Shown: positions 844 through 44,855 of the stretch, piece after piece
How positions within the stretch are numbered: position 1 is the stretch's first letter
Layout of the letters: each line of letters opens with the position of its first letter
Assembly (NCBI GenBank): GCA_050178035.1
Contig: JBFXGK010000001.1
Span: 128,679-192,678, forward strand
Direction: 5' to 3'
Source: Kiritimatiellia bacterium
GTDB lineage: Bacteria; Verrucomicrobiota; Kiritimatiellia; JAKQHR01
Length of the DNA: 64,000 bases
Position numbers and translations under genes: made by a program
Notes under the pieces: model-generated
Databases searched by the model: none
Seen by the model: only the letters and a program-made list of their open reading frames with translations
What the model was told of the DNA's origin: nothing

Positions 844-1833
844 TCACGCGCGCGGGTGCGCCTGCTGGTACACCTCTTTGAGCCGCTCAACCGTTATATG
901 CGTATAAATCTGCGTGGTTGACAGGCTGGCATGGCCTAAAAGCTCCTGAACACTACGTAAATCGGCCCCGTTGTCGAGCAAATGCGTCGCAAAACTGTGC
1001 CGCAGCACATGCGGTGAATGCTCCGGGTTCAGATTGGCCGCCTGCAGATATTTTTTCATCATCCGCTCAATGGACCGCGTGGTGATCCGCCCGCCCTGCC
1101 GGTTCAGAAAAAAACCCGCGGCCCCGGGCCTTTCACCAATGCTGATGCAGAAGGCGTCCCGCTTGTCCACCGCTTCACGCAGCGAACGCGAGGCCGGTCC
1201 GCCCAGCGGGCACAGCCGCTCCTTTTTGCCCTTGCCGCGCACCTTGATGATGCCCGCAAGAAAATCCACCTGCGACGTGGTCAGCCCCGCCAGCTCGCTG
1301 ACGCGCATGCCCGTGCTGTAGAGCACTTCCAGGATGGCCTTGTCGCGGGCCGTTGCGTAATCCATCCACGCCTTGTCGCCGGGCGACTGCGGCGCTTCCT
1401 GCTGCGCGGCGACAAGTTTGGGGGCATCCAGAAGCCGGTTGACTTCGGCCACCGAGAGCACCTCCGGCAGATATTTCCCCTTCTTGGGCATCGCCAGCCC
1501 CGAGAACGGATTGAACGTCACCATTTCCTCGCGGAGCATGTACCGGAAAAACGACCGCATGCTGGATAGCTTGCGCAGAACCGTCGTCGGGTTGCGCCCG
1601 TCCTTCATCATGTGCACAAGGAACTTGCGGCCCGCGTAGCGATCGCACTGCTTCCAGCCGTAGGGCGGCTTCGCATCGGCACCCCACGAAAAGACGATGA
1701 ACTGCTTGATGTCCAAAAGGTAGTTGCTGATCGTGTGGCGCGAGGCGTTTTTCTCGCCCTCCAGATAATCCATGAACGCCGCCAGCGACGGATCGGCCTC
1801 CTTGCGCTGGTCTTTGGCTTTGCCCTCGTTCAT
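844..1833 (-). CDS. tyrosine recombinase, XerC/XerD family
   Basis: ORF 844..1875; C-terminal catalytic motifs (HVLRHSFATHLL, LLGHASLSTTQIYTH). Start moved to ATG at 1833 (MNEGKAK...) to avoid overlap with gatB; 1875 is the alternative. Confidence 0.8.
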   Translation of the reverse strand: MNEGKAKDQRKEADPSLAAFMDYLEGEKNASRHTISNYLLDIKQFIVFSWGADAKPPYGWKQCDRYAGRKFLVHMMKDGRNPTTVLRKLSSMRSFFRYMLREEMVTFNPFSGLAMPKKGKYLPEVLSVAEVNRLLDAPKLVAAQQEAPQSPGDKAWMDYATARDKAILEVLYSTGMRVSELAGLTTSQVDFLAGIIKVRGKGKKERLCPLGGPASRSLREAVDKRDAFCISIGERPGAAGFFLNRQGGRITTRSIERMMKKYLQAANLNPEHSPHVLRHSFATHLLDNGADLRSVQELLGHASLSTTQIYTHITVERLKEVYQQAHPRA

Positions 1834-1840
1834 GCCGGGT

Positions 1841-3262
1841 TCAGCCGAGATTCTTCTTGAGGATTTCGATGACAACGGCCGGATTGGCCTTGCCCCTGCT
1901 GAGTTTCATGACCTGTCCCACGAGATGCTGCAGGGCGGCTTCCTTGCCCGCTTTGTAGGCGGTCACGGATTTTTCATTTTCGGCAATCGCCTGTTTCGCC
2001 ATTGCCTCCAGCGCGCCGGTGTCGCTGACCTGCGCCAGCCCGCGCGCCTTCACAATCGCAGCCGGATCGCCGCCCTCTTCCAGCATCACGGCGAATACTT
2101 CCTTTGCGCCGGTGCTGCTGACGGTTTTGGAATCGACCAGCTTGATCAGCGCCGCCAGAGCAACGGGAACGATCTTGAGGTTCCTGATTTCAATCTCCTG
2201 CGCCGAAAGCACGCGCATGACTTCGCTCATGACCCAGTTGGAAGCCGCTTTGCCGTTGCCGGAGAGTTTTGCGGCCTCCTCAAAATAGTCGGCCACATTT
2301 TTGTCGGCCGCCAGCACGCCCGCGTCATATTCGGGAATGCCGTACTGCGCCATCATCCGCTCGCGCCGCTTCGCGGGCAGTTCAGGAAGCTGACAGCGCC
2401 ACTGCTCAACGATTTTCTCGTCCAGCACCACGGGCATGAGGTCGGGTTCCGGGAAATAGCGGTAGTCGTGCGCGTATTCCTTCGAGCGCATGGCCAGCGT
2501 GACGCCGGCCACATCATCCCAGCGACGCGTTTCCTGCAAAATGGTCCCGCCCTTTTCCAGAACGGAAATCTGCCGGGCGATCTCGGCTTTGAGTGCGCGG
2601 TGCACGCCCTTGAACGTGTTCATGTTCTTCAGTTCGGTTTTGACGCCCAGCTTCTCCTGCCCCTCGGGGCGGACGCTGCAGTTCACGTCGCAGCGCATGT
2701 TGCCCTCTTCGAGATTGCAGTCGCTGATGCCGCCGTAGACCAGAATCTGCTTGAGCGCCTGCAGATAGGCAAAAGCCTCGTCGGCCGACTCGATCACCGG
2801 CTCCGTTACAATCTCCATCAGCGGCGTGCCCGCGCGGTTGAAATCCACGCCGCTGTAATTTTCGAAATGGATGTTCTTCGCGACATCCTCTTCAAGGTGA
2901 ATGCGCGTGACATCAATCGAACGCTTGCCGGCTTCCGTTACGATATCAACCGACCCACCGAGGCACAGCGGCTGATCGTACTGTGAAATCTGGTAGTTTT
3001 TGGGCATGTCGGGATAGAAATAGCTCTTGCGGTCAAACTTGCTGTACGTGTTGATCTTGCATCCGATCATCAGCCCGGTCATTACCGTGAGGCGGACGGC
3101 CTCCTCGTTCAGCACCGGCATTGCGCCCGGATAGCCGAGGCATACCGGACAGACATGCGTGTTGGGCTCGTCGCCGAAATCCTTCCGGCATCCGCAGAAA
3201 ATCTTGCTCTGCGTCTTGAGCTGAACATGCGTTTCCAGACCTATGGTGACTTTGTAGTTCAT
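1841..3262 (-). CDS. gatB: aspartyl/glutamyl-tRNA(Asn/Gln) amidotransferase subunit B
   Basis: 473 aa; N-terminus MNYKVTIGLETHVQLKTQSKIFCGC typical of GatB; full-length. Confidence 0.95.
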   Translation of the reverse strand: MNYKVTIGLETHVQLKTQSKIFCGCRKDFGDEPNTHVCPVCLGYPGAMPVLNEEAVRLTVMTGLMIGCKINTYSKFDRKSYFYPDMPKNYQISQYDQPLCLGGSVDIVTEAGKRSIDVTRIHLEEDVAKNIHFENYSGVDFNRAGTPLMEIVTEPVIESADEAFAYLQALKQILVYGGISDCNLEEGNMRCDVNCSVRPEGQEKLGVKTELKNMNTFKGVHRALKAEIARQISVLEKGGTILQETRRWDDVAGVTLAMRSKEYAHDYRYFPEPDLMPVVLDEKIVEQWRCQLPELPAKRRERMMAQYGIPEYDAGVLAADKNVADYFEEAAKLSGNGKAASNWVMSEVMRVLSAQEIEIRNLKIVPVALAALIKLVDSKTVSSTGAKEVFAVMLEEGGDPAAIVKARGLAQVSDTGALEAMAKQAIAENEKSVTAYKAGKEAALQHLVGQVMKLSRGKANPAVVIEILKKNLG

Positions 3263-3382
3263 CTCTTCATTTCTTTCATGCCCGAGCCATTATCATAAAT
3301 GAGTGGACTGAACAAGAGATTGGTTCGAGGGATGATCAAAGACGGATATTATCTGACAGGATCAACAGGATTTACGAGATTC

Positions 3383-4228: not shown

Positions 4229-5022
4229 TACCCGTGTGATTCGGTCGGGAACCGGCCCTGCTCGACTTCGTCCTTGTAGCTGGTCAGGGCGCGGGTGATT
4301 TCGGTGCCGAGTTCGGCGTAGCGTTTCACGAAGCGCGGCTGATTCCCATGATAGAGGCCAAGCAAATCGTGCCAGACCAGCACCTGACCATCACACCCGG
4401 GGCCTGCACCGATTCCAATGGTTGGAATATTTATCGAGGCGGTAATTTCTGCCGCCAGTTTCTGCGGAATGCATTCAAGCACCAGCGAAAAAGCTCCGGC
4501 CTCGGCCAGGTCTTTCGCGTCCTGTTTGAGCTGCTCCGCATCTTGTTCTGTTTTGGCCTGAACCCTGAACCCTCCAAAAACATTTACGCTCTGCGGGGTC
4601 AAACCAAGATGGGCCTGCACCGGGATCCCGTTGGCCACCATTCGTTGAACCAGTTCAACGCGCACGGCCCCGCCCTCGACCTTGACGGCATCAGCCCCGG
4701 CTTCTTTTAAAAACCGCCCGGCATTGATCAATGCTTCGTCTTCGGAGCCCTGATAGGAAAGAAAAGGCATGTCCGCCACCACCATGGCCTGTTTCACGGC
4801 TCGCGAAACCGCGCGGGTGTGGTGAAGCATTTCTTCCATGGTGACGGGAAGCGTTGTGTCGTATCCAAGAACAGTCATGCCCAGCGAGTCTCCCACAAGC
4901 ACCAGCGGGATGCCCGCCTCGTCCGCGATCCGGGCGGATGAAAAATCATAGGCCGTGATGCAGGCAATTTTCCGCTGACCCTTCTGGGCCTTGATCGTGA
5001 GCACTGTCCACTGTTTTTTCAT
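4225..5022 (-). CDS. panB: 3-methyl-2-oxobutanoate hydroxymethyltransferase
   Basis: ORF 4225..5073; [24 protein letters not shown] motifs. Start set to ATG at 5022 (MKKQWTVL), just after folK stop. Confidence 0.9.
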
Positions 5023-5531: not shown

Positions 5532-6038
5532 CTATTTCCCCGCTTTCTTCCCAAGCGCGTAATGCAGCAGGATCTCATCCGTTTTGTAGAGCCGCCTGCA
5601 GGCCTCGCGCGCGATGTTTAAAATCACCATGCCGAATATATCCTTGTCCGTTTTGTAAAGCGAATGGATCGCCTCGCGCGAAAGAATGATCAGTTCCGTG
5701 TCCTCCATCGCCACGGCGGTGGCCGAGTGCGGCTGAATGCCTATCACCGAGGTCTCGCCGAAGCACTGCCCCGTGCCGAATTCAATCAGTTCCATGGTTG
5801 TGCCGTCCACGTCCACCACCATCTTCACACGCCCCGACTGCACAATATAAATGTGGCTGGGCCTGCCGCCCTGCTCAAAAATCATCGTCCCTTCTTTATG
5901 GTGCATCGAACCCAGCAGCGGAAATATCCGATGCAGTTGCTCATCGGTCAGCCCGCCCAGCAGAGAAATCTGGTTGAGGATCGCCATGACGCGGCTCACA
6001 TCCAGCGGGAACTGCCTCTCCTGCTCGGAAAAGCTCAT
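5532..6038 (-). CDS. stand-alone cyclic-nucleotide-binding domain protein (no HTH)
   Basis: C-terminal 168 aa of ORF 5532..6401 from MSFSEQERQ; cNMP-binding fold signature (IYIVQSGRVKM...GQCFGETS...ATAVAMEDTELI). The upstream 121 aa of the ORF overlap dapB in another frame and are rejected. ATG at 6038, 1 nt after dapB stop. Confidence 0.7.
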   Translation of the reverse strand: MSFSEQERQFPLDVSRVMAILNQISLLGGLTDEQLHRIFPLLGSMHHKEGTMIFEQGGRPSHIYIVQSGRVKMVVDVDGTTMELIEFGTGQCFGETSVIGIQPHSATAVAMEDTELIILSREAIHSLYKTDKDIFGMVILNIAREACRRLYKTDEILLHYALGKKAGK

Positions 6039-6856: not shown

Positions 6857-7723
6857 TCAAATGAGGTTCACTTCGCGCAGGCAGTCCGCCAGCTTCTTCT
6901 TGAGCGCATCGCTCATCGGGCACAGCGGCAGACGGTAGACCTCCTCGATCCTGCCCATCATCGCAAGCGCGGCCTTCACCGGAATCGGATTGGTGTCCAG
7001 GAACAGGTCGCAGAACAAGCGGTGATACTTCAGATGAATCTTGCGCGCATCTTCCCAGCGTCCCGCCAGCGCATCGGCGACCATCGCGGATACCGGCTCC
7101 GGCGCCACGTTCGTGGCGACGCTGATCACGCCAACTGCGCCGACGACCATCATGGGGAGTGTCAGCGAATCATCGCCCGACAGAATCTCAATGTTGCACA
7201 GCCTGCGGATATGGCTCACGCGGTCCACGCTTCCGCCCGCCTCCTTCACACAGACAATCTGCGGATGCTTTGAAAGCTCGGCAATCGTCTCGACGGCGAT
7301 CTCGCGCGAGGACCGGCCGGGCACATTGTAGAGCACCACCGGCAGGCCGAGGTCGGCCACCGCCGAAAAGTGCGCGATGAGTCCCGCCTGGTTGGGCTTG
7401 TTGTAGTAGGGCGTCACCTGCAGCGTGGCGTCCACGCCCATTTCCTTCACGGCCTCCGTCAGTTCAATGGCCTCGGAAGTGGAGTTGGCGCCCGTGCCGG
7501 CGATGACCTTTGCGCGGCCCTTGCAGCGCATGGCGACGGCGCGAATCACCTCGAGGTGCTCGTTCATCTCCAGCGTAGGCGACTCGCCGGTCGTTCCGAC
7601 CGGAACGATGCCGGTCACCCCGCCTTCAATCTGCATCTCCACCAATGCGTCAAGCCTCTCGTAGTCCACCGACCCGTCCTTGCGGAACGGCGTGACAATC
7701 GCGGTATATGTACCTTCAAACAT
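6857..7723 (-). CDS. dapA: 4-hydroxy-tetrahydrodipicolinate synthase
   Basis: 288 aa; TAIVTPF...GIVPVGTTGE...YNKP motifs. Confidence 0.95.
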   Translation of the reverse strand: MFEGTYTAIVTPFRKDGSVDYERLDALVEMQIEGGVTGIVPVGTTGESPTLEMNEHLEVIRAVAMRCKGRAKVIAGTGANSTSEAIELTEAVKEMGVDATLQVTPYYNKPNQAGLIAHFSAVADLGLPVVLYNVPGRSSREIAVETIAELSKHPQIVCVKEAGGSVDRVSHIRRLCNIEILSGDDSLTLPMMVVGAVGVISVATNVAPEPVSAMVADALAGRWEDARKIHLKYHRLFCDLFLDTNPIPVKAALAMMGRIEEVYRLPLCPMSDALKKKLADCLREVNLI

Positions 7724-7752
7724 GCTTTGCCTCCATCGGCCTTTTCAAAAAG

Positions 7753-7829
7753 TTCCAATGATTGGAAGTTTCTTTCTGAAAAGTTCCAACCATTGGAAAA
7801 TCTAAACACGATTCCTCCAATGATTGGAA
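7753..7829. promoter_or_regulatory. array of three 7-1-7 palindromes TTCCAAT-N-ATTGGAA, 31-bp centre spacing, 30-106 bp upstream of dapA start
   Basis: Read directly: TTCCAATGATTGGAA 7753-7767, TTCCAACCATTGGAA 7784-7798, cTCCAATGATTGGAA 7815-7829. Confidence 0.5.
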
Positions 7830-7919
7830 GTTTTTACGCATTATTTTCCAGCGGCTGGAACTTAAAGTCAGCCTCCGGCCGACACCCGGAACGCTGGTGT
7901 CCTTCCGCAGAAAATCCGC

Positions 7920-7974
7920 GAAAATGCAAAATTTCGCAAAAAATTGGCATTTTTGACCGTTTTTTGCCATTTTT
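7920..7974. repeat. phased A/T-tract array, left part (interrupted by IS insertion)
   Basis: gaaaatgcaaaatttcgcaaaaaattggcatttttgaccgttttttgccattttt; T/A runs recur every ~10-11 bp. Confidence 0.5.
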
Positions 7975-9290
7975 GCACATCTGTCCCAGTATTACCGCCA
8001 CAGCATCAACTGGTTAGAAGAGGGAGGTGTTTCTGGGGAGGCGTCTGCCTGCTGAAAAGCCTGTAAAATGGGCACTTTTTCAAATAGCGAGACACTCAAG
8101 ACCTGTAGAATAATGTAGAGTGAAGCTTCTATTTTCAGCCGCTTCTTTATGATGGCGACCAGCAGATATACTGTGATCGCAATCCAGATTTGAGATTTAA
8201 CCGCATTGGGCGAGGTTCCGTAGAATGACTTGATCCGCAGATTCTGCTTGATCCATTTAAAAAATATTTCGATGTTCCAGCGGCCCTTGAAAAGTTCTGC
8301 AACCGTGAGGGGAGGAAGTGAAAAATTATTGGTAAGGAAAACCAGCGTCCGGTTTTCCTGATCACGATACTTGATGCGCCGGAGATGTTCCGGAAAGTAT
8401 CGGGCTGTCTGTGTACCCGTGAGAATGATGGTCTGATCGCAAAGGATGCCGCAGTCTCTATCGGATGGATGGGAGTAGATACGTTGGAACTGAAGATTGG
8501 ATCGGGCCCGTGTAACAAAATAGGCTTTAAGCGAGTGTAGCAGATAAAGGCGTTTGAAATCCAAATAGGCGCGGTCCATTACATAGTAGGCTCCGGGAAC
8601 CGGCAGGATGTGATCCAATACACTGGCATCACCTCGTTTGCCATCTGTAATCAGTATATATTCCGGGATATTGCCGGATAAGTTGAGAAGGGTATGCATC
8701 TTCACGGCCCCTTTGGTCCGGCAGAAATGAGCCCAAGGAAACATCGAAAGACACAGGTCGATCACCGTTGAGTCCAATGCGTATACATCGGCACCCAAAT
8801 CCGGCATCAGCGGATCATCCGCGTATAATCGTCTGGCCTCAGGAATCAGGACGTGAGCAAAATCAGCGTAGATGCGCCAGTCCCGGGTTTCGTTCGCAAC
8901 AGAAAGATTGTTGCGCGAGACGCGACTGTGAATCCCCAAGTGGTACAGCTTGCCGCTCACAGCCCGCAAACAGGATTCGATGTCCCGCAAACTTTCACGG
9001 CAAGTCAACTGAGCAAAGGCCATCACACGGAACTGCTCAGAGCACCGGAACGTCTTCACCTTGTAATCGCCCTGATAGCGATTCACCAACGTCTGAAATC
9101 GCCACCAGGGCAACTGCTGCATCAGCTGAGAAAATACGGTTGTTCCAGAATACATAAGGTTGATCTCCTCCTCCTGATCAACCTTATAGGAAAAACCAAT
9201 TTCAAGTCGGAAAGGATGTAATATCAACACATCCTTATGATGTAACGTGCGTTATAACTATTTTATGCGAAAACGTTGGGACAGATGTGC
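7975..9290 (-). mobile_element. IS element, IS4-family-like, ~1.3 kb, with terminal inverted repeats and flanking direct repeat
   Basis: Perfect 14-bp inverted repeats gcacatctgtccca (7975-7988) and tgggacagatgtgc (9277-9290); flanking direct repeat cattttt at 7968-7974 and 9291-9297 (7-9 bp depending on exact IR end); one DDE transposase ORF inside. Confidence 0.8.
7992..9155 (-). CDS. DDE transposase (IS4 family-like)
   Basis: ORF 7992..9230; start set to ATG at 9155 (MYSGTTVFSQLMQQLP...). Candidate DDE residues in YALDSTVIDL, YVMDRAYLDF, WNIEIFFKWIKQNLRIK. Confidence 0.85.
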   Translation of the reverse strand: MYSGTTVFSQLMQQLPWWRFQTLVNRYQGDYKVKTFRCSEQFRVMAFAQLTCRESLRDIESCLRAVSGKLYHLGIHSRVSRNNLSVANETRDWRIYADFAHVLIPEARRLYADDPLMPDLGADVYALDSTVIDLCLSMFPWAHFCRTKGAVKMHTLLNLSGNIPEYILITDGKRGDASVLDHILPVPGAYYVMDRAYLDFKRLYLLHSLKAYFVTRARSNLQFQRIYSHPSDRDCGILCDQTIILTGTQTARYFPEHLRRIKYRDQENRTLVFLTNNFSLPPLTVAELFKGRWNIEIFFKWIKQNLRIKSFYGTSPNAVKSQIWIAITVYLLVAIIKKRLKIEASLYIILQVLSVSLFEKVPILQAFQQADASPETPPSSNQLMLWR

Positions 9291-9350
9291 CATTTTTGGG
9301 CTTTTTGGGGGCATTTTTGACCATTTTTTGCACTTTTTCGTGGTTTTCAG
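9291..9350. repeat. phased T-tract array, right part (continuation across the IS)
   Basis: catttttgggctttttgggggcatttttgaccattttttgcactttttcgtggttttcag. Confidence 0.5.
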
Positions 9351-9371
9351 GTTGATGTTTTAAGGGCTTAG

Positions 9372-10739
<1,368 letters not shown>

Positions 10740-12445: not shown

Positions 12446-12925
12446 TCAGAGCACCTCTTTCAGGGCGGATTCGTAGACCGAACGGTGATTGAAACCGCTG
12501 ATCTGGCGGAGCTGGCGGCCGTTCTCATAAATGCGGACATCGGGAATGCCCACTATCCCGGCAGCCTGCGCTTCGGCTGCATGTTTGTCCACATTCACCC
12601 CGACAAAGAGCACGCGGCCGGCATAATCCCCCGCGAGCTTGTCCAGCACCGGCTTGAGGCTCTTGCAGGGTGGACACCAGTCGGCATAGTAATCAACAAG
12701 AACCGCGCGGTTGCTTTGGACAATCCCCGCGATGGTTTCGCCGGGGGCAGGCAGATAAATGTTTTGCGGGGTGCGGGTGCCGATTTCATGCCACGCAATC
12801 AAACCCGCGATCACAGCGCCGATGAAGGCGCCGTTCACGGGGGCCAGATGCAGTCTTTTCACCTTCAGGCACGCAATGAACCCAATCAGTGCCCCAAAGG
12901 CCGCCGTTAAAATCAGGATCAGCAT
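12446..12925 (-). CDS. membrane-anchored thioredoxin-family protein
   Basis: 159 aa; N-terminal TM helices, WCPPC active site. Confidence 0.8.
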   Translation of the reverse strand: MLILILTAAFGALIGFIACLKVKRLHLAPVNGAFIGAVIAGLIAWHEIGTRTPQNIYLPAPGETIAGIVQSNRAVLVDYYADWCPPCKSLKPVLDKLAGDYAGRVLFVGVNVDKHAAEAQAAGIVGIPDVRIYENGRQLRQISGFNHRSVYESALKEVL

Positions 12926-12928
12926 GGA

Positions 12929-13447
12929 TCAGTCCGCTGCGGGAGCGGCCGGCGGGACGAAGACGCGCGCGGCCAGCTCGCGGTCGAGCATGAACAGGCC
13001 CTGCTTGGAATCGCCGGAAATCCGGATCTGGTCAAGGATGCCTGTAGCGTTTTCTTCTTCCTCGATCTGCTCGGTGACAAACCACTGCACAAAGATTTCA
13101 GAGGCATAATCGCCGTCTTCGCGCGAAAGCTTCATCAGGTTGTTGATGCGGGAGGTGACATATTTCTCATGCTCCAGCGTCAGTTCAAAAAGCTCCTTCA
13201 TGGAGGTTCCCTTTAATTCAGGCTTTTCGATCGCTTCCATGACCGGCAGCGCGCCCTGGCTGCAGAGATATTTGAAGAACTTGTCGGCATGAGTCATTTC
13301 TTCCAGAACCTGGACATGGAACCAGTTTGCGCAGCCTTTATAACCCTGGGTTTCCGCCTGGGCGGACATGGCATAATACAAGTAGGCCGAATAGATTTCC
13401 TTGTTGATCTGCTCGTTGATGGCTTTTGCCAGTTTCTTCGATATCAT
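12929..13447 (-). CDS. ferritin (non-haem)
   Basis: 172 aa; ferritin-like four-helix ferroxidase signature (EIYSAYLYYAMS, LEEMTHADKF). Confidence 0.85.
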   Translation of the reverse strand: MISKKLAKAINEQINKEIYSAYLYYAMSAQAETQGYKGCANWFHVQVLEEMTHADKFFKYLCSQGALPVMEAIEKPELKGTSMKELFELTLEHEKYVTSRINNLMKLSREDGDYASEIFVQWFVTEQIEEEENATGILDQIRISGDSKQGLFMLDRELAARVFVPPAAPAAD

Positions 13448-13473
13448 CTGATCTGCTCCTTATCTAAGATGAA

Positions 13474-13497
13474 GCGGGGGCCGTCATCGGCCCCCGC
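13474..13497 (-). terminator. GC-rich hairpin between dfx and ferritin gene (possible terminator/attenuator)
   Basis: gcgggggccg-tcat-cggcccccgc perfect 10-bp stem; no strong U-tract, so weak as an intrinsic terminator. Confidence 0.35.
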
Positions 13498-13518
13498 GTT
13501 CAATTGCTTGATTATGGT

Positions 13519-13896
13519 TCAGGACTTCCAGAGGCCGTGCACGTTGCAATACTCGCGTGCCGATACATTCTTAGCGCTGATGCCTTCAAAAACGGCAACA
13601 GGCTGGTCGCCCGGCTTCAGGAATTTCCGTCCCACTTTGTCATCAAACTGAATTTCGATCCATTCAATATAGTGTTCCGGGAGCATGGGATGAAGCGTGC
13701 TTCCCACGGTGACCTTGTAGCCCGTGGCGGTTTTCTCGATCAAGGGAACATGCTTCTCCTTGGTCTTGTCCGCCGTCTGTTCCACCATGAGCTTCATGGG
13801 TTCGCCGCAGCAAACCAGTTCCCCGTCGCCGGCATGCAGGACGCTGACAATATTACTGCAGGCCGCACATTTATAGATTTCCAGTCGCTTTGTCAT
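13519..13896 (-). CDS. dfx: desulfoferrodoxin (2Fe superoxide reductase)
   Basis: 125 aa; N-terminal desulforedoxin Cys cluster ([10 protein letters not shown]...CCGEPM) plus SOR domain. Confidence 0.9.
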
Positions 13897-13912
13897 TGTT
13901 CGCTCCTTGTTG

Positions 13913-14485
13913 TTACCAGTTTTCCGCCAACAGTTCGAAATGGGCCTGGGGATGGGCGCAGGCCGCGCAGATATCCGGGGCTTCTTTTCCGGTATGAATA
14001 TATCCGCAGTTCATGCAGCGCCAGACAACCGGTTTGTCTTTTTTGAAAACAGTCTGGGCGTCCACGTTGGCCTTGAGCCCGAGGAAGCGCTTCTCGTGCT
14101 GCTTCTCGGCGACGGCAATGGCTTCAAACACCTTCGCAATTTCGGGGAAACCCTCTTTGCGGGCGGTGTCGGCGTACGAGGGATACATCTCGGTCCACTC
14201 GTAGTGCTCGCCGGCTGCGCCGTGCTCAAGGTTCTCGGAGGTCGAGGCGATTGTTCCGGCCGGGAAGGACGCGGTGATCTCCACCTCGCCGCCCTTGAGA
14301 AACTTGTAAAGACGCTTTGCGTGCTCGCTTTCCTGATCAGCCGTCTCCTCGAAAACCTCGGAGATCTGGCGGAATCCCTCTTTTTTTGCCTTGCCCGCAT
14401 AAAAGGTATAACGGTTCCTTGCCTGCGATTCACCTGCGAATGCGGTCAGCAGATTTTTCTCCGTCTGGCTTCCTTTCAGTTCCAT
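13913..14485 (-). CDS. rbr: rubrerythrin
   Basis: 190 aa; diiron domain ([23 protein letters not shown]) plus C-terminal rubredoxin-like CxxC...CxxC. Confidence 0.95.
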
Positions 14486-14494
14486 TTTTCTCTC

Positions 14495-15643
14495 CTATGA
14501 CAATTTCTGTCCAAGCTGTTTTTCGTATTTTCTGAAATCCGCTGCGGACCCGGCCATTTGGATACCGACGAGTACGCCATCCTTCACCAGAAGGCCGCGG
14601 AAAATTTCAGCACTGTGCTCCAATATTACCGTATGAATCCCATTTGCGCAAGCCGGACCGATTGAATTTACGGCGAAGCCCGCGTGAGAGTAGAATATGG
14701 GCGAATCTGAAGGCTGGTGAGCCGACAGGGCCATTCCCTGCGCCGCCGAAAGCGCGTTGACTGCGGCCACCTTGCCCTGCAGCACGGCCTCCAGCGCGCA
14801 AAAGATATCTACATGGTCCCATTCAGCAATATCTCCGCAGGCAAAGACCGAAGGTGCGGATGCCTGCATCTTCATATCCACCCGTATCCCCTTCCCGCAA
14901 ACGAGCCCCGAGGATTTCGGAAGCGTCACATCGCGGCGCGCGCCCACCGCCAGCACCACCAGGTCCGCTGTCATCACGTCGCCGGACTCCATTATGAGTT
15001 GGAAATCCCCGGCATTCTGCCTGGCAATGGACGACACCGTGGTCCCCAGAAGGATTTTAACGCCCATCGACCGGAGTAAATTCTCGACGACTTCAGACGC
15101 ATCCGTGCACAAGTTGGACAGCATCAAATGCTCCAGGCGCTCCACCAGCACCACGTCCAGACCGGCAAGTGCTCCGCGATGCGCCACTTCCACCCCCAGA
15201 ATTCCGCCCCCGATCACCACCAACTTCCTGCCGGGAGCCAGCGTCCCGCGGATGTCTTCGGCATGCTCTATGTGCCATAGCGGATGAATATGTTTCCGCG
15301 CGGAATGCGCGAACGGCGGTATGGCTGGACCGGATCCGATGGAAAATATAATAGCATCATACGACTCTGTTCCCCGTCCGGATGTCAGGGTTCGCGCAGC
15401 TGAATCACAGGCCGTGACCGGAGTGTCCAGCCGCAAATCGATTTTGCGCGACGCATACCACGCCAAGTCATGCATCGTGATGTCCTCCAGCGAGGACTGC
15501 GCAAAAGCGTACCCGACCAGCTTGGGGCGGTAATACGGCAAGACCTTTTCCGCCGAATACAAATGGACTTCCGCTCCCTGCGCGGCGGCCGTTTCGGCCG
15601 CCTTCACGCCCGCATGGCCCGCGCCAATGATTCCCAGCTTCAC
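14495..15643 (-). CDS. NAD(P)H:rubredoxin oxidoreductase-like FAD-dependent pyridine nucleotide-disulfide oxidoreductase
   Basis: ORF 14495..15709; two Rossmann motifs (LGIIGAGHAG, LVVIGGGILGVE). Start set to GTG at 15643 (VKLGIIGAG), overlapping the PtsI-like stop (GTGA). Confidence 0.75.
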   Translation of the reverse strand: MKLGIIGAGHAGVKAAETAAAQGAEVHLYSAEKVLPYYRPKLVGYAFAQSSLEDITMHDLAWYASRKIDLRLDTPVTACDSAARTLTSGRGTESYDAIIFSIGSGPAIPPFAHSARKHIHPLWHIEHAEDIRGTLAPGRKLVVIGGGILGVEVAHRGALAGLDVVLVERLEHLMLSNLCTDASEVVENLLRSMGVKILLGTTVSSIARQNAGDFQLIMESGDVMTADLVVLAVGARRDVTLPKSSGLVCGKGIRVDMKMQASAPSVFACGDIAEWDHVDIFCALEAVLQGKVAAVNALSAAQGMALSAHQPSDSPIFYSHAGFAVNSIGPACANGIHTVILEHSAEIFRGLLVKDGVLVGIQMAGSAADFRKYEKQLGQKLS

Positions 15644-17253
15644 GAAACCGCCGCCTTTCGGACCGCGGGTATTGCGCGCGGGCTGCAGCTCACGGATTTT
15701 ATGCCGCATTCCATCAGTTTCCTGACCATCACCGGATCACTCGCCAGTTCGCCGCATACGGACAGCGACCGCCGGTGTTTTTCGGCGGCCGCTGCGATTC
15801 CGCGCAGCACCTGCCAGAACACCGGATGGTCAGAGGTGTATTCGTCAGTCACCAGCTCATTGCCGCGGTCCACCGCAAAAAGATATTGAGTAAGATCATT
15901 CGTGCCGATACTGGCAAATTGAGCCTCGGCCAGAATGGCATCCGCCTGAAGGGCGGCCGACGGGACTTCAAACATCACCCCGAATTCAATGCTGCCGGTT
16001 TTAATGTCCTCCACCATTTCTTTGAACATGTCGCGCAAGCGCCGGAATTGCGCAACATCAACGATCATGGGGAACATCACACGAACAGGGCCCTTCAGCG
16101 ATGCGCGTGCAATGGCACGCGCCTGATCACGAAACAGGTTCGGATGGCGGATCAGCAAACGGCTGCCGCGCAGGCCCAATGCGGGGTTTTCCTCCTTCGG
16201 AATCCTCATTGCCGGCAACGGCTTGTCTCCTCCGGCATCGAGCATCCGGAATGTGGTCACACGGCCTTCCATGGCCTCGACCACAGGCGCATAACGCGTA
16301 TACTGCGCTTCTTCAGACAGCAATTCGCCTGCGGATATGAATTCGAATTCCGTCCGGTAAAGTCCAATGCCCTCTGCCTTCATTTCGCGGGCTTCGGACA
16401 CTTCCCGGCCCAGTGTGATGTTGGCCATCACCTGAAGTTGCGGGACGGTGTCAACGGCTCCGTCACGGCGCGCCCTTCCCGCCTCGCAAGAGCAGGCGGC
16501 AATTGTTCTTTCATCCGGAGAAATGATCACTTCACCGGTGTCTCCATTCACAATCAGCTCTGTGCCGCAAGCAACGGTGCTGTGAATGTTCTTGATGCCG
16601 CTGACCGCGGGAATGCCCAGCGCGCGCGCAAGGATCGCAGCATGCGAGTTGACACCGCCATGTTCGGTGACAAATGCCAGAACCTCCCCGGTGTTCAAAC
16701 TGACGGTAAGGCTGGGCGTCAGCTCTTCGGCAATGACAATGCGGTTTTTGCCCCGGCGGCAGCGGCCGGCGCAACTGAACCCCGGTGCGGTATTGGACAG
16801 GTTGTCCAGCAGGCGGCGGCGAATCTCACCGATGTCAGACGCCCGCTCGCGAATGTACTCGTTGTCGAGAGCGCCCAGTTTCGTCTCATAGGCATCGAGC
16901 ACCGTATGAATCGCATTTTCAGCGTTGCGCAGGGCGGAACGGATGTGTTCGCGCAGCTGCTTAAGGATCATTGGATCCTCGACAATCATTTTCTGCGCAA
17001 CAAAAATGCCGGCCTCGGCCTGGCCCATCCGGTTTTCCACATGCGCGCGGATATTTTCAAGCTGCTGGGCTGTGGCTTCCACGGCATCTTCCATACGCTT
17101 GACTTCATCGTTGAGCTGTGCGGGTTCAATGGCGTAGTCGGGAACCTCCTGATGACGGTGATCATCAAAAAGGCAAACGCGGCCAAGGGCCACTCCTTTG
17201 CTCAGAGAAAGGCCTTGAACGCGTTTTTCAGCAGTTTTGTTTCCAGTGGCCAA
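15640..17253 (-). CDS. ptsI: phosphoenolpyruvate--protein phosphotransferase (PTS Enzyme I-like)
   Basis: 537 aa; EI motifs: catalytic His region GGVNSHAAILARALGIPAV, IGTNDLTQYLFAVDR, CGELASDP; N-terminal domain aligns with EI. Confidence 0.85.
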   Translation of the reverse strand: MATGNKTAEKRVQGLSLSKGVALGRVCLFDDHRHQEVPDYAIEPAQLNDEVKRMEDAVEATAQQLENIRAHVENRMGQAEAGIFVAQKMIVEDPMILKQLREHIRSALRNAENAIHTVLDAYETKLGALDNEYIRERASDIGEIRRRLLDNLSNTAPGFSCAGRCRRGKNRIVIAEELTPSLTVSLNTGEVLAFVTEHGGVNSHAAILARALGIPAVSGIKNIHSTVACGTELIVNGDTGEVIISPDERTIAACSCEAGRARRDGAVDTVPQLQVMANITLGREVSEAREMKAEGIGLYRTEFEFISAGELLSEEAQYTRYAPVVEAMEGRVTTFRMLDAGGDKPLPAMRIPKEENPALGLRGSRLLIRHPNLFRDQARAIARASLKGPVRVMFPMIVDVAQFRRLRDMFKEMVEDIKTGSIEFGVMFEVPSAALQADAILAEAQFASIGTNDLTQYLFAVDRGNELVTDEYTSDHPVFWQVLRGIAAAAEKHRRSLSVCGELASDPVMVRKLMECGIKSVSCSPRAIPAVRKAAVS

Positions 17254-17264
17254 AACGGCCTCAT

Positions 17265-17426
17265 CTATGCGACAGGCTCAAAGTCGCTTTTGGGAACACC
17301 GCATTCAGGACAAACCCAGCTGTCGGGAATGTCGGCAAAAGCGGTTCCGGGAGCAATCCCGTTGTCCGGATCTCCGACGGCGGGGTCATAAACGTATCCG
17401 CAGACGGTGCAAACATATTTCTGCAT
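17265..17426 (-). CDS. rubredoxin
   Basis: Not in ORF track (53 aa). Own translation: [53 protein letters not shown]; canonical CxxCG...WxCPxCG rubredoxin. Confidence 0.85.
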
Positions 17427-17431
17427 GTTGT

Positions 17432-18640
17432 TCACTCCTGTTTGATCTGTTTACAGATTTCCAATGCCTGATCTGCAAGCATACTACCGGCTTCCCGGCA
17501 AAGCGCAAGATCATCTGCCCGCGGCACATATTGGACCTGGATGGGCTCGCGGAGAATCCGGACTTTCATATCCTCAAGATATTCATTCACCTCCTGTGCC
17601 CCGCCCTTCGCCCAGCCATACGATCCGAATGCGAATCCCGCCTTGCCGGCGGGCTTCAAGCCCTTGAGATACGTCAGCACGGCTGCCGCCTGCGGCATCA
17701 GCGTTCCGTTCAGCGTCGGCGACCCGAAAGCAAATGTTGCCGCATCCAGCATCTCCGTGGCCAGCGTGGTGGTGTTGCTTGCCCGGATGTAGAACAGCTT
17801 GGCGTCAACTCCGGGCTTTGCGGCGCCTTCCAGGATGGCGTGCGCCATTTTCTCGGTGCTTTTCCACATGGTGTCATAAATGACCAGCACCTTGGGCTTC
17901 GGTTTGCAGACCATCCATTCGCTGTAGGCCTGCATGATTTCCTTTACATGCCTGCGCCAAATCACCCCGTGGCTGGGGGCAATCATTTCGACGTCCAGCC
18001 CACCCACCCCGCTCAGCACGCGAGCGATGGGTTTGCTGTAGAGCATCAGGATGTTTGCATAGTATGTCTTTGCCTCGAACATGACCGTGTTCAGCGGTTC
18101 CTCATCGTCAAAGCGTCCGGATGAGGCATAATGCTGGCCGAAGCCATCCATCGAGAAAAGAATCTTTTCCTCCGGCACATAGGTGGCCATGGATTCCGGC
18201 CAGTGCGCCATCGGCGTTTCCACAAAGACCAGCGTCCGCTTGCCCAGGGAGAGTTTGTCTCCGTCTTTAACAATCTTGAACTTCCAGCCGGTGATGTCGT
18301 GATGAAGCGCAAGAGCCTTCTGGCATTTGTCATCACAGACAATCTCCGCCTGCGGACAGGCGGCCACAACTTCCGGAAGAGAACCGGCATGATCCAGCTC
18401 GGCGTGATTGCAGACAATGTAATCAATCTTCCGAAGATCAATCAGCCTGCGGACATTGTCCAGCAGCTGTTTGCCAAAACCGGCCTTGACGGTGTCAATC
18501 AGCGCGTTCTTGCCGTCACGCACCAGATAGGCGTTATAGGTGGATCCGCGACGGGTTTCGTATCCATGAAAATCGCGGACATTCCAGTCCACGTATCCCA
18601 CCCAGTCAATGTTGTTCCGCAGGCTCGTGTTCATATGCAA
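17432..18640 (-). CDS. flavodiiron protein (FprA / rubredoxin:oxygen or NO oxidoreductase)
   Basis: 402 aa; metallo-beta-lactamase-like diiron domain ([14 protein letters not shown]) plus C-terminal flavodoxin domain. Confidence 0.9.
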
Positions 18641-18703
18641 TCTCCAGAATCAGCCCATATTAGACGCAACCGGCCGGGAGGTAAAGGTTCTTCGAACCGC
18701 GCA

Positions 18704-19045
18704 TCACGTCGCCGGCTGGCGAATCATGATCAGCAGCATTTTGAACTGCTTTTCCGCCCAGAGAGAATGCGGAACATTTGCCGGCATGATCACCAATTGC
18801 CCGGCCCGGGCAGTCAGCGGATTTCCGCCGATGTTGATAACCACCTCGCCGTCCAGAATCTGAACAGCCGCATCATACGGTGATGTGTGCTCGCTGAGCC
18901 CCTGCCCCGCATCAAAGGCAAACAGGGTCAATGAGCCCACGTCTTTGTTCATCAGAGTCTTGCTGACGACCGAACCGGAGGCATAGGCGACCTCTTGAAC
19001 AAGTTCAAGGGGCCGCCCTTTGTAGTCTTCGCTGCCCATGATCAC
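18704..19045 (-). CDS. cupin domain protein
   Basis: 113 aa; cupin motifs (GLSEHTSPYDAAVQILDGEV ... PANVPHSL). Confidence 0.65.
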   Translation of the reverse strand: MIMGSEDYKGRPLELVQEVAYASGSVVSKTLMNKDVGSLTLFAFDAGQGLSEHTSPYDAAVQILDGEVVINIGGNPLTARAGQLVIMPANVPHSLWAEKQFKMLLIMIRQPAT

Positions 19046-19410
19046 TCCGCGGGCGCGACAGGCGCTTCCGCCTCAGGGGCCTTTGAAACGCAGCCCGCTT
19101 TTTCCATCATCGGGCATCCGGCCTTGCCTTCAGCCTTCATGCTTTTGCAGCAGGCCATGCAACCAGGCGATCCCGCATGCTTTCCGCACTTCGGGCATAC
19201 CGCGGCGCCTTCTTTGCAGCACAGTTCCGAACCCGCAACCTGGCCGCATTTCCCGCACAGCGCGGGCGCAGCTTCCTCCGATGTCGAAGAGGCCTTCATT
19301 TCTGCTGCCGGTTCAACCGCCGCAGCGGCCTTCGCCGCGCAGCAGGGCCCGGCAAAGGAAACCGATGAAACGGCCAGCACCATTAAAATAACCATTATTC
19401 CGACTTTCAT
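19042..19410 (-). CDS. secreted cysteine-rich small protein (hypothetical, putative metal-binding)
   Basis: ORF 19042..19545; start set to ATG at 19410 (MKVGIMVILMVLAVSSVSFA signal peptide). Mature part has 14 Cys in CC and CxxC arrangements. Confidence 0.5.
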   Translation of the reverse strand: MKVGIMVILMVLAVSSVSFAGPCCAAKAAAAVEPAAEMKASSTSEEAAPALCGKCGQVAGSELCCKEGAAVCPKCGKHAGSPGCMACCKSMKAEGKAGCPMMEKAGCVSKAPEAEAPVAPAE

Positions 19411-19466
19411 AACACTCACCTTTCTTCCCTTGTGGGAATTGAAGTATACGCACCAGGGGCAATAAA

Positions 19467-20249
19467 TCAAATGGCCTTGATCGAAAGAATGTCGCCGGTG
19501 AGACTCATGACCGCTTCTTCCACCACCAAATCCTCCCGCCCGCATCTTTCAGCGGCAGCGCGAACCATCATGGTCAGTCCACCGCAGCAGGGAACCTGCA
19601 TTCTGACGACAATGACTTTGGGGATGGACGGCTCAGCAAATATATCGGCCATTTTTTCCACATAGCCGTCTGTACGATCCAGCTTTGGGCAGGCTACAAC
19701 CAAGCCCCTGCCCCGCAGAAAACGCCAGTGCACGTCAGCCGAGGCGATTGGTCCGCAGGTGCTCATCACCACCAGCTCGCGGTTCTTGAAGAACGGCGCA
19801 CCCGCCTGCACCAGATGCAGCTGCACAGGCCACTGCTGAAGCTCCGACGGAATCGCCGTGGGCATCTGCGCGTGGGTCGCCACCGCCGGCTTTGCGGCGG
19901 GAGCATCCGGCACACGCATGCGTGTGCCGGGACATCCCCCGCCCGACGGGGCCAGGCCATGCTTTTTCCCCGCCTCGTCGAACTTCACAACCGCCGCCGC
20001 GCCCTGAGTCTCCGCCACATGCATGCGCGTGGCATTGAAGTCAAAACCATCCGCCTCGCGCTCTTCAATGGTCAGCGCGCCGGTCCGGCATTCACCGATG
20101 CAGTCTCCGAAACCATCGCAGAACTGCTCCTTGACCAGTTTTGCCTTGCCGTTGACGATCTTCAGCGCGCCCTCTGCGCAGGATGTGACGCATTCGCCGC
20201 ATCCGTTGCAGAGGTCTTCATTGATCCTGATGATCTTGCGCTTTGCCAT
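19467..20249 (-). CDS. 4Fe-4S dicluster domain-containing protein
   Basis: 260 aa; N-terminal CNGCGECVTSCAEGAL and CDGFGDCIGECRTGAL ferredoxin motifs; further Cys pairs C-terminally; directly downstream of hcp. Confidence 0.7.
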   Translation of the reverse strand: MAKRKIIRINEDLCNGCGECVTSCAEGALKIVNGKAKLVKEQFCDGFGDCIGECRTGALTIEEREADGFDFNATRMHVAETQGAAAVVKFDEAGKKHGLAPSGGGCPGTRMRVPDAPAAKPAVATHAQMPTAIPSELQQWPVQLHLVQAGAPFFKNRELVVMSTCGPIASADVHWRFLRGRGLVVACPKLDRTDGYVEKMADIFAEPSIPKVIVVRMQVPCCGGLTMMVRAAAERCGREDLVVEEAVMSLTGDILSIKAI

Positions 20250-22389: not shown

Positions 22390-22761
22390 TCAGGAAGTCT
22401 TTTTCGGCCAGGCCTTGAGGACGGCCATCACCTCTCGGACCCAGGTGCAAACGCACTTGACGGGACATCGGCCGTCCTGACCCAGATGGGAGCAGTAACC
22501 CGGACAGTCCGGTCCCCGGTAGGCACACGTCTGCCACACAGGTCCGTCGTAAAGGTTCCGGAAGTCTTCCACCGCCAGGGCAAGCGTGGTCGTGCATTCG
22601 GTCACATGGTTGAAAAGGAAATATCCCAACCGTTCCTCTTCAAAAAAAGGCTGATAGCCAAGAAATTCGACCGATGGATCTGACAGGAATGAATCCCGGT
22701 CCTTCCATGCCGTGCCGCAGGTCGTGCAGCGCTTGTAGATATGTACGCTCTCTTCTTTCAC
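22390..22761 (-). CDS. cysteine-rich hypothetical protein
   Basis: 123 aa; CTTCG, CAYRGPDCPGYCSH, CPVKCVC motifs; first gene of the hcp operon; no family recognised. Confidence 0.45.
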   Translation of the reverse strand: MKEESVHIYKRCTTCGTAWKDRDSFLSDPSVEFLGYQPFFEEERLGYFLFNHVTECTTTLALAVEDFRNLYDGPVWQTCAYRGPDCPGYCSHLGQDGRCPVKCVCTWVREVMAVLKAWPKKTS

Positions 22762-22854
22762 ATTCCCTCTTGCTCATGACAGTTTATTCGACGATCCCCG
22801 ACAAAGCAAGGGGGTGCTTCAACAATATCCGCGGCCTGCCGCCGGTTCAAAAAG

Positions 22855-22931
22855 TTCCAATCATTGGAAGTATTTCCGGGAAAAGTTCCAACCATTGGAA
22901 GTTTTGTGAAGAAAAGTTCCAATGATTGGAA
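22855..22931. promoter_or_regulatory. array of three 7-1-7 palindromes TTCCAAT-N-ATTGGAA, 31-bp centre spacing, upstream of the Cys-rich/rrf2/hcp operon
   Basis: TTCCAATCATTGGAA 22855-22869, TTCCAACCATTGGAA 22886-22900, TTCCAATGATTGGAA 22917-22931. Confidence 0.55.
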
Positions 22932-24107: not shown

Positions 24108-24224
24108 CCTCCCTCTTCGGCCTTTGCAGGCTTTTGTTGGAAGAAATGCTATCAAATATTCCGCAGGAAACAATCGAAGAAACGAACCGGTTTGCGCGCT
24201 TCTCGATCTTTTGCGGCGAATTAT

Positions 24225-24315
24225 GAAAAAATTGACGAAATTCGGCCAATTTTGAGCATTTTTAGCCGTTTTTGGCGTGTTTTCGCTAATTTTGGCCATT
24301 TCGATGCTTTTTCAG
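24225..24315. repeat. phased A/T-tract array
   Basis: gaaaaaattgacgaaattcggccaattttgagcatttttagccgtttttggcgtgttttcgctaattttggccatttcgatgctttttcag; T runs every ~10 bp. Confidence 0.5.
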
Positions 24316-44747: not shown

Positions 44748-44793
44748 TTCCAATCATTGGAAGTATTATAACGAATAGTTCCAGGGATTGGAA
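44748..44793. promoter_or_regulatory. two 7-1-7 palindromes, 31-bp centre spacing, 63-108 bp upstream of iorA
   Basis: TTCCAATCATTGGAA 44748-44762; TTCCAGGGATTGGAA 44779-44793 (degenerate left half). Confidence 0.5.
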
Positions 44794-44855
44794 CTTTTAC
44801 AAAGGCCTGCCTCCTTGCATAAATTCTTTCATTTGTTAAAGTCGGCCATTCTTGT

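Follow-up and report, generated by a model that had tools for sequence, protein, structure and literature searches.

Helically phased TTCCAA/TTGGAA palindrome arrays, an intergenic element family of Kiritimatiellia genomes with a putative DNA-binding partner

NrdR boxes come in pairs with spacers of 15 to 16 bp or 24 to 27 bp, equivalent to three or four helical turns from center to center, as documented by binding assays; phyla or genera prefer one spacer class, and the spacing is set by an oligomer lying on one face of the helix (PMC12051234). Lrp-family regulators bind sites two or three turns apart, with wrapping of the DNA (PMC2995911). Here we describe arrays of a short palindrome, TTCCAAT-N-ATTGGAA (TTCCAATNATTGGAA), in a 64,000-nucleotide stretch of contig JBFXGK010000001.1 (positions 128,679 to 192,678) from a Kiritimatiellia bacterium, referred to as a whole as the window. 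A sequence-only reading of the window had taken the palindrome for a candidate operator of a regulator acting on dapA, hcp, and iorA. A nonrandom, same-face array suited to a putative dimeric protein stands from that proposal, whereas the regulon does not, as more than 100 genes without relation to one another, spread over 46 genomes, lie next to arrays. The TTCCAA/TTGGAA arrays are a high-copy intergenic element family of many Kiritimatiellia genomes and not a private operator of dapA. The explanation that we favor, with confidence and doubt evenly balanced, is that they are cooperative same-face binding sites for a putative dimeric protein that would be either architectural or a global regulator. 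Whether regarded as a phased operator array or as an interspersed intergenic palindrome family with a putative binder, the element is a new variety of a known kind. No published description of the sequence, or of intergenic palindromes in Kiritimatiellia, was found in the literature searched.

When the window was searched with the palindrome at up to two mismatches, 11 matches were found where 0.33 would be expected, a number not attained in any of 100 shuffles, in agreement with the earlier view that the motif is nonrandom. The eight palindromes listed in that reading were all recovered at their positions; they form three intergenic arrays with 31-bp spacing, which occupy 3 of the window's 27 intergenic gaps. 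Array A includes sites at 7753 to 7767 (TTCCAATGATTGGAA; center, 7760), 7784 to 7798 (TTCCAACCATTGGAA; center, 7791), and 7815 to 7829 (CTCCAATGATTGGAA; center, 7822), with 31 bp between successive centers; the first site is the closest to dapA, whose ATG at 7723 is 30 nt away. A fourth site at 7846 to 7860 (TTCCAGCGGCTGGAA; center, 7853) is degenerate, still palindromic, and keeps the 31-bp phase, and it is also found in relatives (loci L118 to L120). Array B (22855 to 22931) consists of sites at 22855 to 22869, 22886 to 22900, and 22917 to 22931, centered at 22862, 22893, and 22924, and array C (44748 to 44793) of sites at 44748 to 44762 and 44779 to 44793, centered at 44755 and 44786.

The motif had been described as always intergenic, which holds for the arrays of the window and not for all matches, as three weaker look-alikes that are not array members lie within panB and iorA. 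The panB match (4413 to 4427) encodes IPTIGIG and is the same at position 7305 of L118, while the iorA matches (45754 to 45768 and 45778 to 45792) encode IPVIGK and VPIIGE, are also present in the relative L126 (positions 1493 and 1517), and are out of phase at 24 bp apart. These in-gene matches are by-products of the peptide pattern [ILVF]-P-x-[ILVF]-G and recur in relatives because the encoded proteins are conserved. Over the at least 117 array-bearing loci described below, single sites inside open reading frames (ORFs) use all three reading frames (FQxLE, PxIG, and SNxWK).

One genome per GTDB species was scanned for two copies of the core TTCCAA-NSN-TTGGAA (TTCCAANNNTTGGAA) separated by any gap of 6 to 36 nt, corresponding to center spacings of 21 to 51 bp. 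Arrays were found at at least 117 loci containing 428 sites, in runs of two (n = 112), three (n = 24), four (n = 13), five (n = 2), or six (n = 3). Among the matches listed, all 46 metagenome-assembled genomes (MAGs) were labeled Kiritimatiellae or Kiritimatiellales, Pontiella, Tichowtungia, Lentisphaerae, Verrucomicrobia, or unclassified; rumen, lake, and sediment are the sources of the MAGs with the first four of these names. The palindromes are high in copy number, clustered, and intergenic; approximately 81% of multisite arrays lie outside called genes, and the genome CAIVKH carries up to three arrays per 8 kb.

The repeated unit is a palindrome of 15 to 19 bp, (w)T-TTCCAA-n-S-n-TTGGAA-A(w), a 6-3-6 dyad with a loop of only 3 nt that can be extended to 9-1-9. 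In the logo (wT-TTCCAA-t-S-a-TTGGAA-Aw) both half-sites are equally conserved, and the center base is C at 98 sites, G at 91, A at one, and T at none. The center triplet depends on the genome: it is T-S-A at 71 of 72 CAIVKH sites, with T and A at positions ±1 also in RZZM, G-S-C is dominant in CAISWQ, SCQF, CALGXT, and CAIWHP, and other genomes favor noncomplementary triplets. Apart from A/T tracts beside the core (TTGGAAaaaa or TTGGAAactttt), the spacers carry no sequence information. Although all center spacings from 21 to 51 bp were admissible in the search, none was found outside three classes, 21 to 22 bp (23 cases), 30 to 33 bp (184 cases, including 98 at 31 bp and 78 at 32 bp), and 41 to 43 bp (10 cases). 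These classes correspond to two, three, and four turns of B-DNA, with 31 to 32 bp the commonest, and the suggestion that 31-bp phasing represents whole helical turns was thereby borne out in the window and across these loci. Spacing that is constrained while the spacer sequence is free is the pattern that same-face protein contacts would produce. The spacing class also varies by lineage, as Tichowtungia MAGs have 41 to 43 bp and rumen MAGs a mix of 21 to 22 and 30 to 31 bp.

About half of 16 hits in viral contigs resemble the same arrays. In one phage contig (L146), a palindrome pair with 42-bp spacing is located at 1396 to 1452, approximately 250 nt upstream of a lambda-type portal gene (1707 to 3287), and apart from the portal protein no family was found beside the arrays in viral contigs. 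A phage-borne pair fits a host factor whose sites are open to borrowing. A different arrangement was observed in contig IMGVR_UViG_3300018422_000008 (L142), where a longer palindrome, GGAGTTCCAAACTTTGGAACTCC, is repeated six times within 7600 to 7850, the copies being irregularly spaced by 36 to 60 bp; this has the look of a phage operator array that uses the same TTCCAA/TTGGAA arms.

The loci of relatives were retrieved by protein similarity without use of the motif, and as such they provide independent support for the conservation of the core and for its range. Where DapA identity is 93%, the relatives still have the array, longer by one unit than in the window. A 75% relative has four perfect sites at 31 to 32 bp, with an NYN/YacP gene upstream and downstream genes that also differ, and a 68% relative, with a different neighbor again, has a pair of sites that reaches to within 6 nt of the ATG, so that arrays precede dapA in three lineages with three different upstream genes. 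Two relatives at 70% DapA identity, in which dapA lies within a lysA-dapA operon, have no sites in 20 kb each. A search for a variant motif where the core is missing (L123 and L124, 20 kb each) yielded no repeated palindrome either, whatever its sequence. At iorA, the one close relative (L126, 92%) has four sites where the window has two, and the gene upstream is not the same. At the array B locus, a 78% relative has two sites and a 72% relative has three; overall, arrays precede the rrf2-hcp operon in three of four lineages, which have four different upstream genes. Phylogenetic footprinting, the check proposed by the sequence-only reading itself, was thus positive at all three operons. As arrays occupy so few of the gaps in the window, repeated coincidence at the same operons is improbable. 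The arrays stay 5' of the dapA, iorA, and rrf2-hcp operons over long divergence with their cores intact and their spacers randomized, and they gain and lose whole units between relatives. At all three window loci they coincide with synteny breakpoints.

Using a purpose-built codon-usage gene caller, 155 multisite arrays were classified, of which 78 lie in co-directional gaps, 15 in divergent gaps, 14 in convergent gaps, and 29 inside a called ORF; a further 19 have a locus edge on one side. About half of the 29 in-ORF arrays are within approximately 120 nt of the called start and resemble start-call extensions, and the rest are deeper in long ORFs. Phased pairs deep in long ORFs with good coding scores were observed in L062 (3713/3746), L005 (2756/2788), L049 (1763/1794), L100 (479 to 1002), L107 (1044 to 4706), and L006 (1490 to 4586); such pairs are genuinely intragenic or else reflect errors in gene calling. 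Several convergent arrays fill the 60 to 110 nt between two stop codons, and the flanking genes were confirmed by Pfam: an isocitrate/isopropylmalate dehydrogenase family gene facing one for a PATR protein, UxaE facing an FAD oxidoreductase, Wzy facing MurJ, and SBF facing a GH57-like protein. In co-directional gaps the median distance is 37 nt to the upstream stop and 70 nt to the downstream start (sign test, p ~0.04). The 108 directly downstream genes are almost all BLASTP singletons, and the 177 Pfam families identified in 105 of them include none that is present in more than three genes; on the whole the neighbors are not metal or redox genes. Large arrays precede genes for LysA, AlaRS, MreC, KpsF, a sulfatase, a Dam methylase, and others, and neighbors elsewhere include SecA, tRNA synthetases, and glycoside hydrolases. 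Unrelated neighbors, together with the presence of arrays in convergent gaps, argue that there is no discernible regulon.

From the observed motif, phasing, distribution, diversity of context, persistence, and turnover we propose protein binding, cooperativity, and effects on expression. Each palindrome would bind a dimer of one sequence-specific DNA-binding protein, and dimers on neighboring units would touch along one face of the helix, making binding cooperative. Because the sites are so numerous and their settings so varied, such a binder would be architectural or a global regulator, presumably abundant, and not a pathway-specific repressor. An array near or over a gene start, as at dapA, would occlude the start or act as a roadblock; one upstream of a promoter, as at iorA and rrf2-hcp, could modulate or insulate it; and one between convergent genes could serve as a boundary or roadblock. 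A more specialized form of this idea, which we think unlikely, is a boundary or insulator system of Kiritimatiellia in which a dedicated, abundant, sequence-specific architectural protein polymerizes on arrays at transcription-unit borders throughout the chromosome, with both the recognition sequence and the spacing co-evolving with the protein by lineage and being copied by phages; the arrays would then be roadblocks, topological barriers, and promoter modulators.

A number of results weigh against the favored explanation of cooperative binding sites. The 12-nt core was imposed by the search pattern, which bears on its apparent conservation, and the taxonomic range of the at least 117 array-bearing loci, from 46 MAGs, is a lower bound. 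The arrays show no bias toward promoter-bearing gaps: among gaps of at least 60 nt in genomes other than CAIVKH, arrays are present in 25% of the co-directional, 21% of the divergent, and 14% of the convergent ones, and in CAIVKH five of five convergent gaps are occupied. No gene family, transposase or regulator, recurs among 722 array-neighboring proteins, the best being an ABC ATPase in 6 of 46 genomes, although with approximately 2.5 loci sampled per genome a single-copy gene, such as one for a RAYT, would escape this survey. In the scan of window ORFs, which covered nearly all called genes of at least 100 amino acids, an Rrf2 protein was the sole transcription factor detected. In an 80% relative at the array B locus (L130) the array is absent and the promoter-like region is kept; on sequence grounds, arrays are dispensable for the adjacent predicted promoter. 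Center triplets and flanks that are uniform within a genome and different between genomes look like the concerted evolution of a repeat family and not like classical operator conservation. Finally, 31- or 62-bp units have been tandemly duplicated recently in some arrays (L084, L039, and L012), so the regular spacing could be partly inherited rather than selected.

These last features lead to the main rival explanation, which we hold to be somewhat unlikely, that the arrays are repeats akin to repetitive extragenic palindromes (REPs) and bacterial interspersed mosaic elements (BIMEs), spread or homogenized by a RAYT-like or other enzyme, by gene conversion, or by tandem duplication, with gene effects incidental or secondary. 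Such repeats would account for the high copy number, with up to three arrays per 8 kb in CAIVKH, for the occupation of every class of intergenic gap down to tight convergent ones, for neighboring genes without a functional theme, for genome-specific center triplets and flanks and lineage-specific spacing classes, and for whole-unit gain and loss between close relatives, including the loss of a full array in L130, as well as for the evident tandem duplicates and the location at synteny breakpoints. However, no GTAG or CGTC tetranucleotide is present beside the palindromes, and the units are perfect and short, with no bulged hairpins of 20 to 40 nt. REP families are usually species or genus specific, whereas the 12-nt core is common to Pontiella, Tichowtungia, and rumen and lake MAGs. 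The helical-turn spacing persists where spacers have fully diverged, arrays stay with the same downstream operon across lineages of 68 to 75% identity with their cores intact, and no transposase recurs beside them, in a sample too small to exclude a single-copy gene. The sequence-only reading had named flanking target-site duplications as the mark of a small mobile repeat; no conserved ends or duplications of this kind were seen, while unit number does vary and L130 has a different sequence in place of the array with no clean empty site. The binder and repeat models are compatible, because a repeat family may be maintained through its use by a host protein.

Dyad symmetry, the lack of strand bias, and a preference for the same center base at neighboring sites point to recognition of double-stranded DNA and not of an RNA hairpin, and quantized helical spacing is meaningful only for duplex DNA. 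We therefore regard as very improbable an RNA-level role, in which transcribed palindromes would be terminators, attenuators, or mRNA stability elements in untranslated regions through hairpins or site-to-site pairing. Transcripts through the arrays do have strong predicted folding (-52.5, -35.4, and -22.8 kcal/mol; z-scores of -6.4, -4.6, and -3.9), but they owe this solely to the repetition of one palindrome, and the stem of a single site is 6 bp with two G-C pairs. Many arrays begin 2 to 30 nt past a stop codon, in line with the shorter median distance to stops than to starts, and CTTTT follows most sites in the sense orientation, the latter in the window's lineage only; yet the transcription-oriented logo is symmetric without T-tract polarity. 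On the transcribed strand, G-U-type changes are no more frequent than C-A-type ones in the degenerate sites that keep the phase (5 versus 5), neighboring sites share the same center base in 77 cases versus a complementary one in 50, which would leave a mismatch in an inter-site helix, arrays are found in divergent promoter regions (L118), and no Rfam family was matched. Least credible of all is the original proposal of a pathway-specific operator for a Fur-like or Rrf2-type regulator with a small regulon including dapA, hcp, and iorA, which we consider highly improbable. It draws on the 7-1-7 layout in this genome upstream of three operons, on the rrf2 gene in the operon downstream of array B, and on the conservation of arrays upstream of these operons in relatives. 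Set against it are the more than 100 unrelated genes that arrays flank (those for tRNA synthetases, SecA, MreC, sulfatases, and glycoside hydrolases among them), the arrays between convergent genes, and the variation of the AAT-N-ATT core between genomes. No homologue of the window Rrf2 and no Lrp-like gene was found beside arrays in other genomes, and where a different Rrf2 family does occur, at three loci, its genes do not adjoin the arrays. The likeness to Fur, PerR, or Zur boxes that had been pointed out proved superficial, as AAT-N-ATT is the least conserved part of the site, with positions ±1 genome specific and a C or G center; the outer arm, TTCC/GGAA, fits no Fur-family box, and the scan of window ORFs (nearly all called genes of at least 100 amino acids) detected no Fur-family gene, as had been stated.

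Several other candidates were tried and rejected. The Rrf2 protein as binder, suggested by the extended 11-1-11 shape and by rrf2 near array B, was dropped since arrays are genome-wide and no homologue lies beside them elsewhere. Desulfovibrio-type regulons had come to mind from hcp, iorA, and rubrerythrin, but the protein hits, among them one for DapA at 93% identity named Kiritimatiellia bacterium, and all motif-bearing genomes point to Kiritimatiellia. Sigma-54 enhancers or extracytoplasmic function-type promoters (from GGAACTT in the flank) do not fit arrays that are 3 to 40 nt from start codons and that also occupy convergent gaps. A fixed distance to a sigma-70-like promoter was not apparent, as the best -35/-10 match has no peak relative to the last site. 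Intrinsic terminators were set aside because the stems are A/T rich, the logo stays symmetric when oriented by transcription, divergent gaps carry arrays too, and CTTTT tails are confined to the window's lineage.

In the window, array A (four sites) lies 30 to 137 nt upstream of dapA (6857 to 7723, minus strand), the first gene of a dapA-dapB-(cyclic-nucleotide-binding)-folK-panB-panC operon, with which the array stays. An IS4-type element (7880 to 9375) now separates eno from array A and comes within approximately 15 to 30 nt of the array's distal site. Its transposase gene (7992 to 9230, minus strand) encodes DUF4372 and DDE_Tnp_1 domains, and its inverted repeats are at 7975 to 7988 and 9277 to 9290. 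The element is missing from close relatives, where eno and dapA are divergent, and in L118 to L120 the eno-dapA gap is an uninterrupted 273 bp; the IS4-type element is no part of the array system. Between the end of the insertion sequence (IS) and array A, a terminator-like G+C-rich hairpin, GTCGGCCGGAGGCTGAC followed by TTTAAGTT, was observed at 7867 to 7883 on the minus strand. The operon also includes a gene (5532 to 6038, minus strand) for a protein of 168 amino acids that consists of a cyclic-nucleotide-binding domain only, without a DNA-binding domain, and is kept at 83% identity in L118 to L120.

Array B starts 31 nt past the stop codon of a NosD-like gene and is 94 nt upstream of a minus-strand operon of a cysteine-rich protein gene, rrf2, hcp, and fdx. 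A promoter-like TTGCTT-17 nt-TAAACT at 22781 to 22809 (minus strand), between the array and the operon start, is kept in L129 and L130 and is the predicted promoter of the operon. The gene heading the operon (22390 to 22761, minus strand) encodes a cysteine-rich protein of 123 amino acids that matches no Pfam family; its homologues are 39 to 48% identical, some from MAGs labeled Desulfobacterales or Deltaproteobacteria, and one hit at 100% identity is named Kiritimatiellia bacterium. This protein may be an uncharacterized partner of Hcp or Rrf2. Array C starts 4 nt past a thiS-like stop codon, upstream of iorA-iorB-paaK-ACT, and directly downstream of it a promoter-like TTGCAT-16 nt-TAAAGT (44815 to 44842, plus strand), kept in L126, is the predicted iorA promoter. 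Elsewhere in the window, genes for thioredoxin, a ferritin-like protein, desulfoferrodoxin, rubrerythrin, a flavodiiron protein, a cupin, ferredoxin, and Hcp form a dense oxygen and nitrosative stress cluster (12446 to 20249), which fits an anaerobe. Tracts of four to five T residues every 10 to 11 bp (e.g., ccaattttgagcatttttagccgtttttggcgtgttttcgctaattttggcc) were observed at 7900 to 7990 and 9290 to 9345, at both ends of the IS, at 24215 to 24300, upstream of the NosD-like gene, and at 5840 to 5930 of L130, where a similar stretch replaces array B. These stretches look like intrinsically curved DNA and may belong to the ends of insertion sequences or to a second family of repeats.

Kiritimatiellia are almost entirely uncultured polysaccharide degraders of gut, rumen, and sediment. 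If a protein binds the arrays, they would reveal a genome-wide DNA-binding system in this group with an unusually sharp, easily scanned site, offering a handle for finding the protein and a means of mapping transcription-unit borders in MAGs. Because center triplets are genome specific and spacing classes of 31 bp and 42 bp exist, they would also be a test case for the co-evolution of specificity and oligomer geometry with hundreds of sites. If they are a repeat family, they would form a REP-like system that reaches deep into the phylogeny, follows a helical-turn ruler, and is tied to synteny breakpoints, useful for the study of genome plasticity and as a taxonomic marker in binning. Under either reading, the sites should not be annotated as marking a regulon of dapA, hcp, or iorA.

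Compared with described systems, the arrays share with Fur, PerR, and Zur boxes the 7-1-7 layout with an AAT-N-ATT center in this genome and the multimerized sites, but differ in the variable center triplet, the C/G central base, and the TTCC/GGAA outer arm; their neighbors are unrelated to metal or peroxide stress, and they are also found at gene 3' ends. REPs and BIMEs of Enterobacteria and Pseudomonas are likewise high-copy, clustered intergenic palindromes with stereotyped linkers, uniform within a genome and variable in copy number, and present between co-directional and convergent genes. The arrays differ from them in their short perfect dyads without GTAG or CGTC, in unique spacers of quantized length, in the range of the core well above the genus, and in being present in divergent promoter regions too and staying with the downstream operon. 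NrdR pairs are alike in their palindromic boxes of approximately 16 bp, three- or four-turn spacing, and lineage preference for one spacing class. The NrdR box consensus is acaCwAtATaTwGtgt, to which the sequence of the arrays is unrelated; no nrd genes were found among array neighbors, and NrdR boxes are restricted to nrd operons at one to two pairs per genome, whereas the arrays have up to six units and many unrelated loci. On present sequence evidence neither NrdR nor the Lrp family appears to be the binder, and a tblastn search with Escherichia coli Lrp, Fis, and HU detected no homologue in the window or in approximately 0.9 Mb of array-bearing loci (E ≤ 1e-3 for Lrp), the part of the genomes that was searched. 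Arrays bound cooperatively, with wrapping of the DNA, by Lrp/AsnC proteins and by Fis at stable-RNA promoters, for which the sites at rrnB P1 give a spacing comparison, resemble the Kiritimatiellia arrays as dyads of approximately 13 to 15 bp in helical register two to three turns apart, serving global or architectural proteins with heterogeneous targets. The Lrp-type register of two to three turns describes the spacings of 21 to 22 and 30 to 33 bp, with 41 to 43 bp additional. We know of no systematic filling of convergent gaps by Lrp or Fis sites, which are degenerate with A/T-rich centers, whereas the Kiritimatiellia sites are near perfect with an obligatory C/G center.

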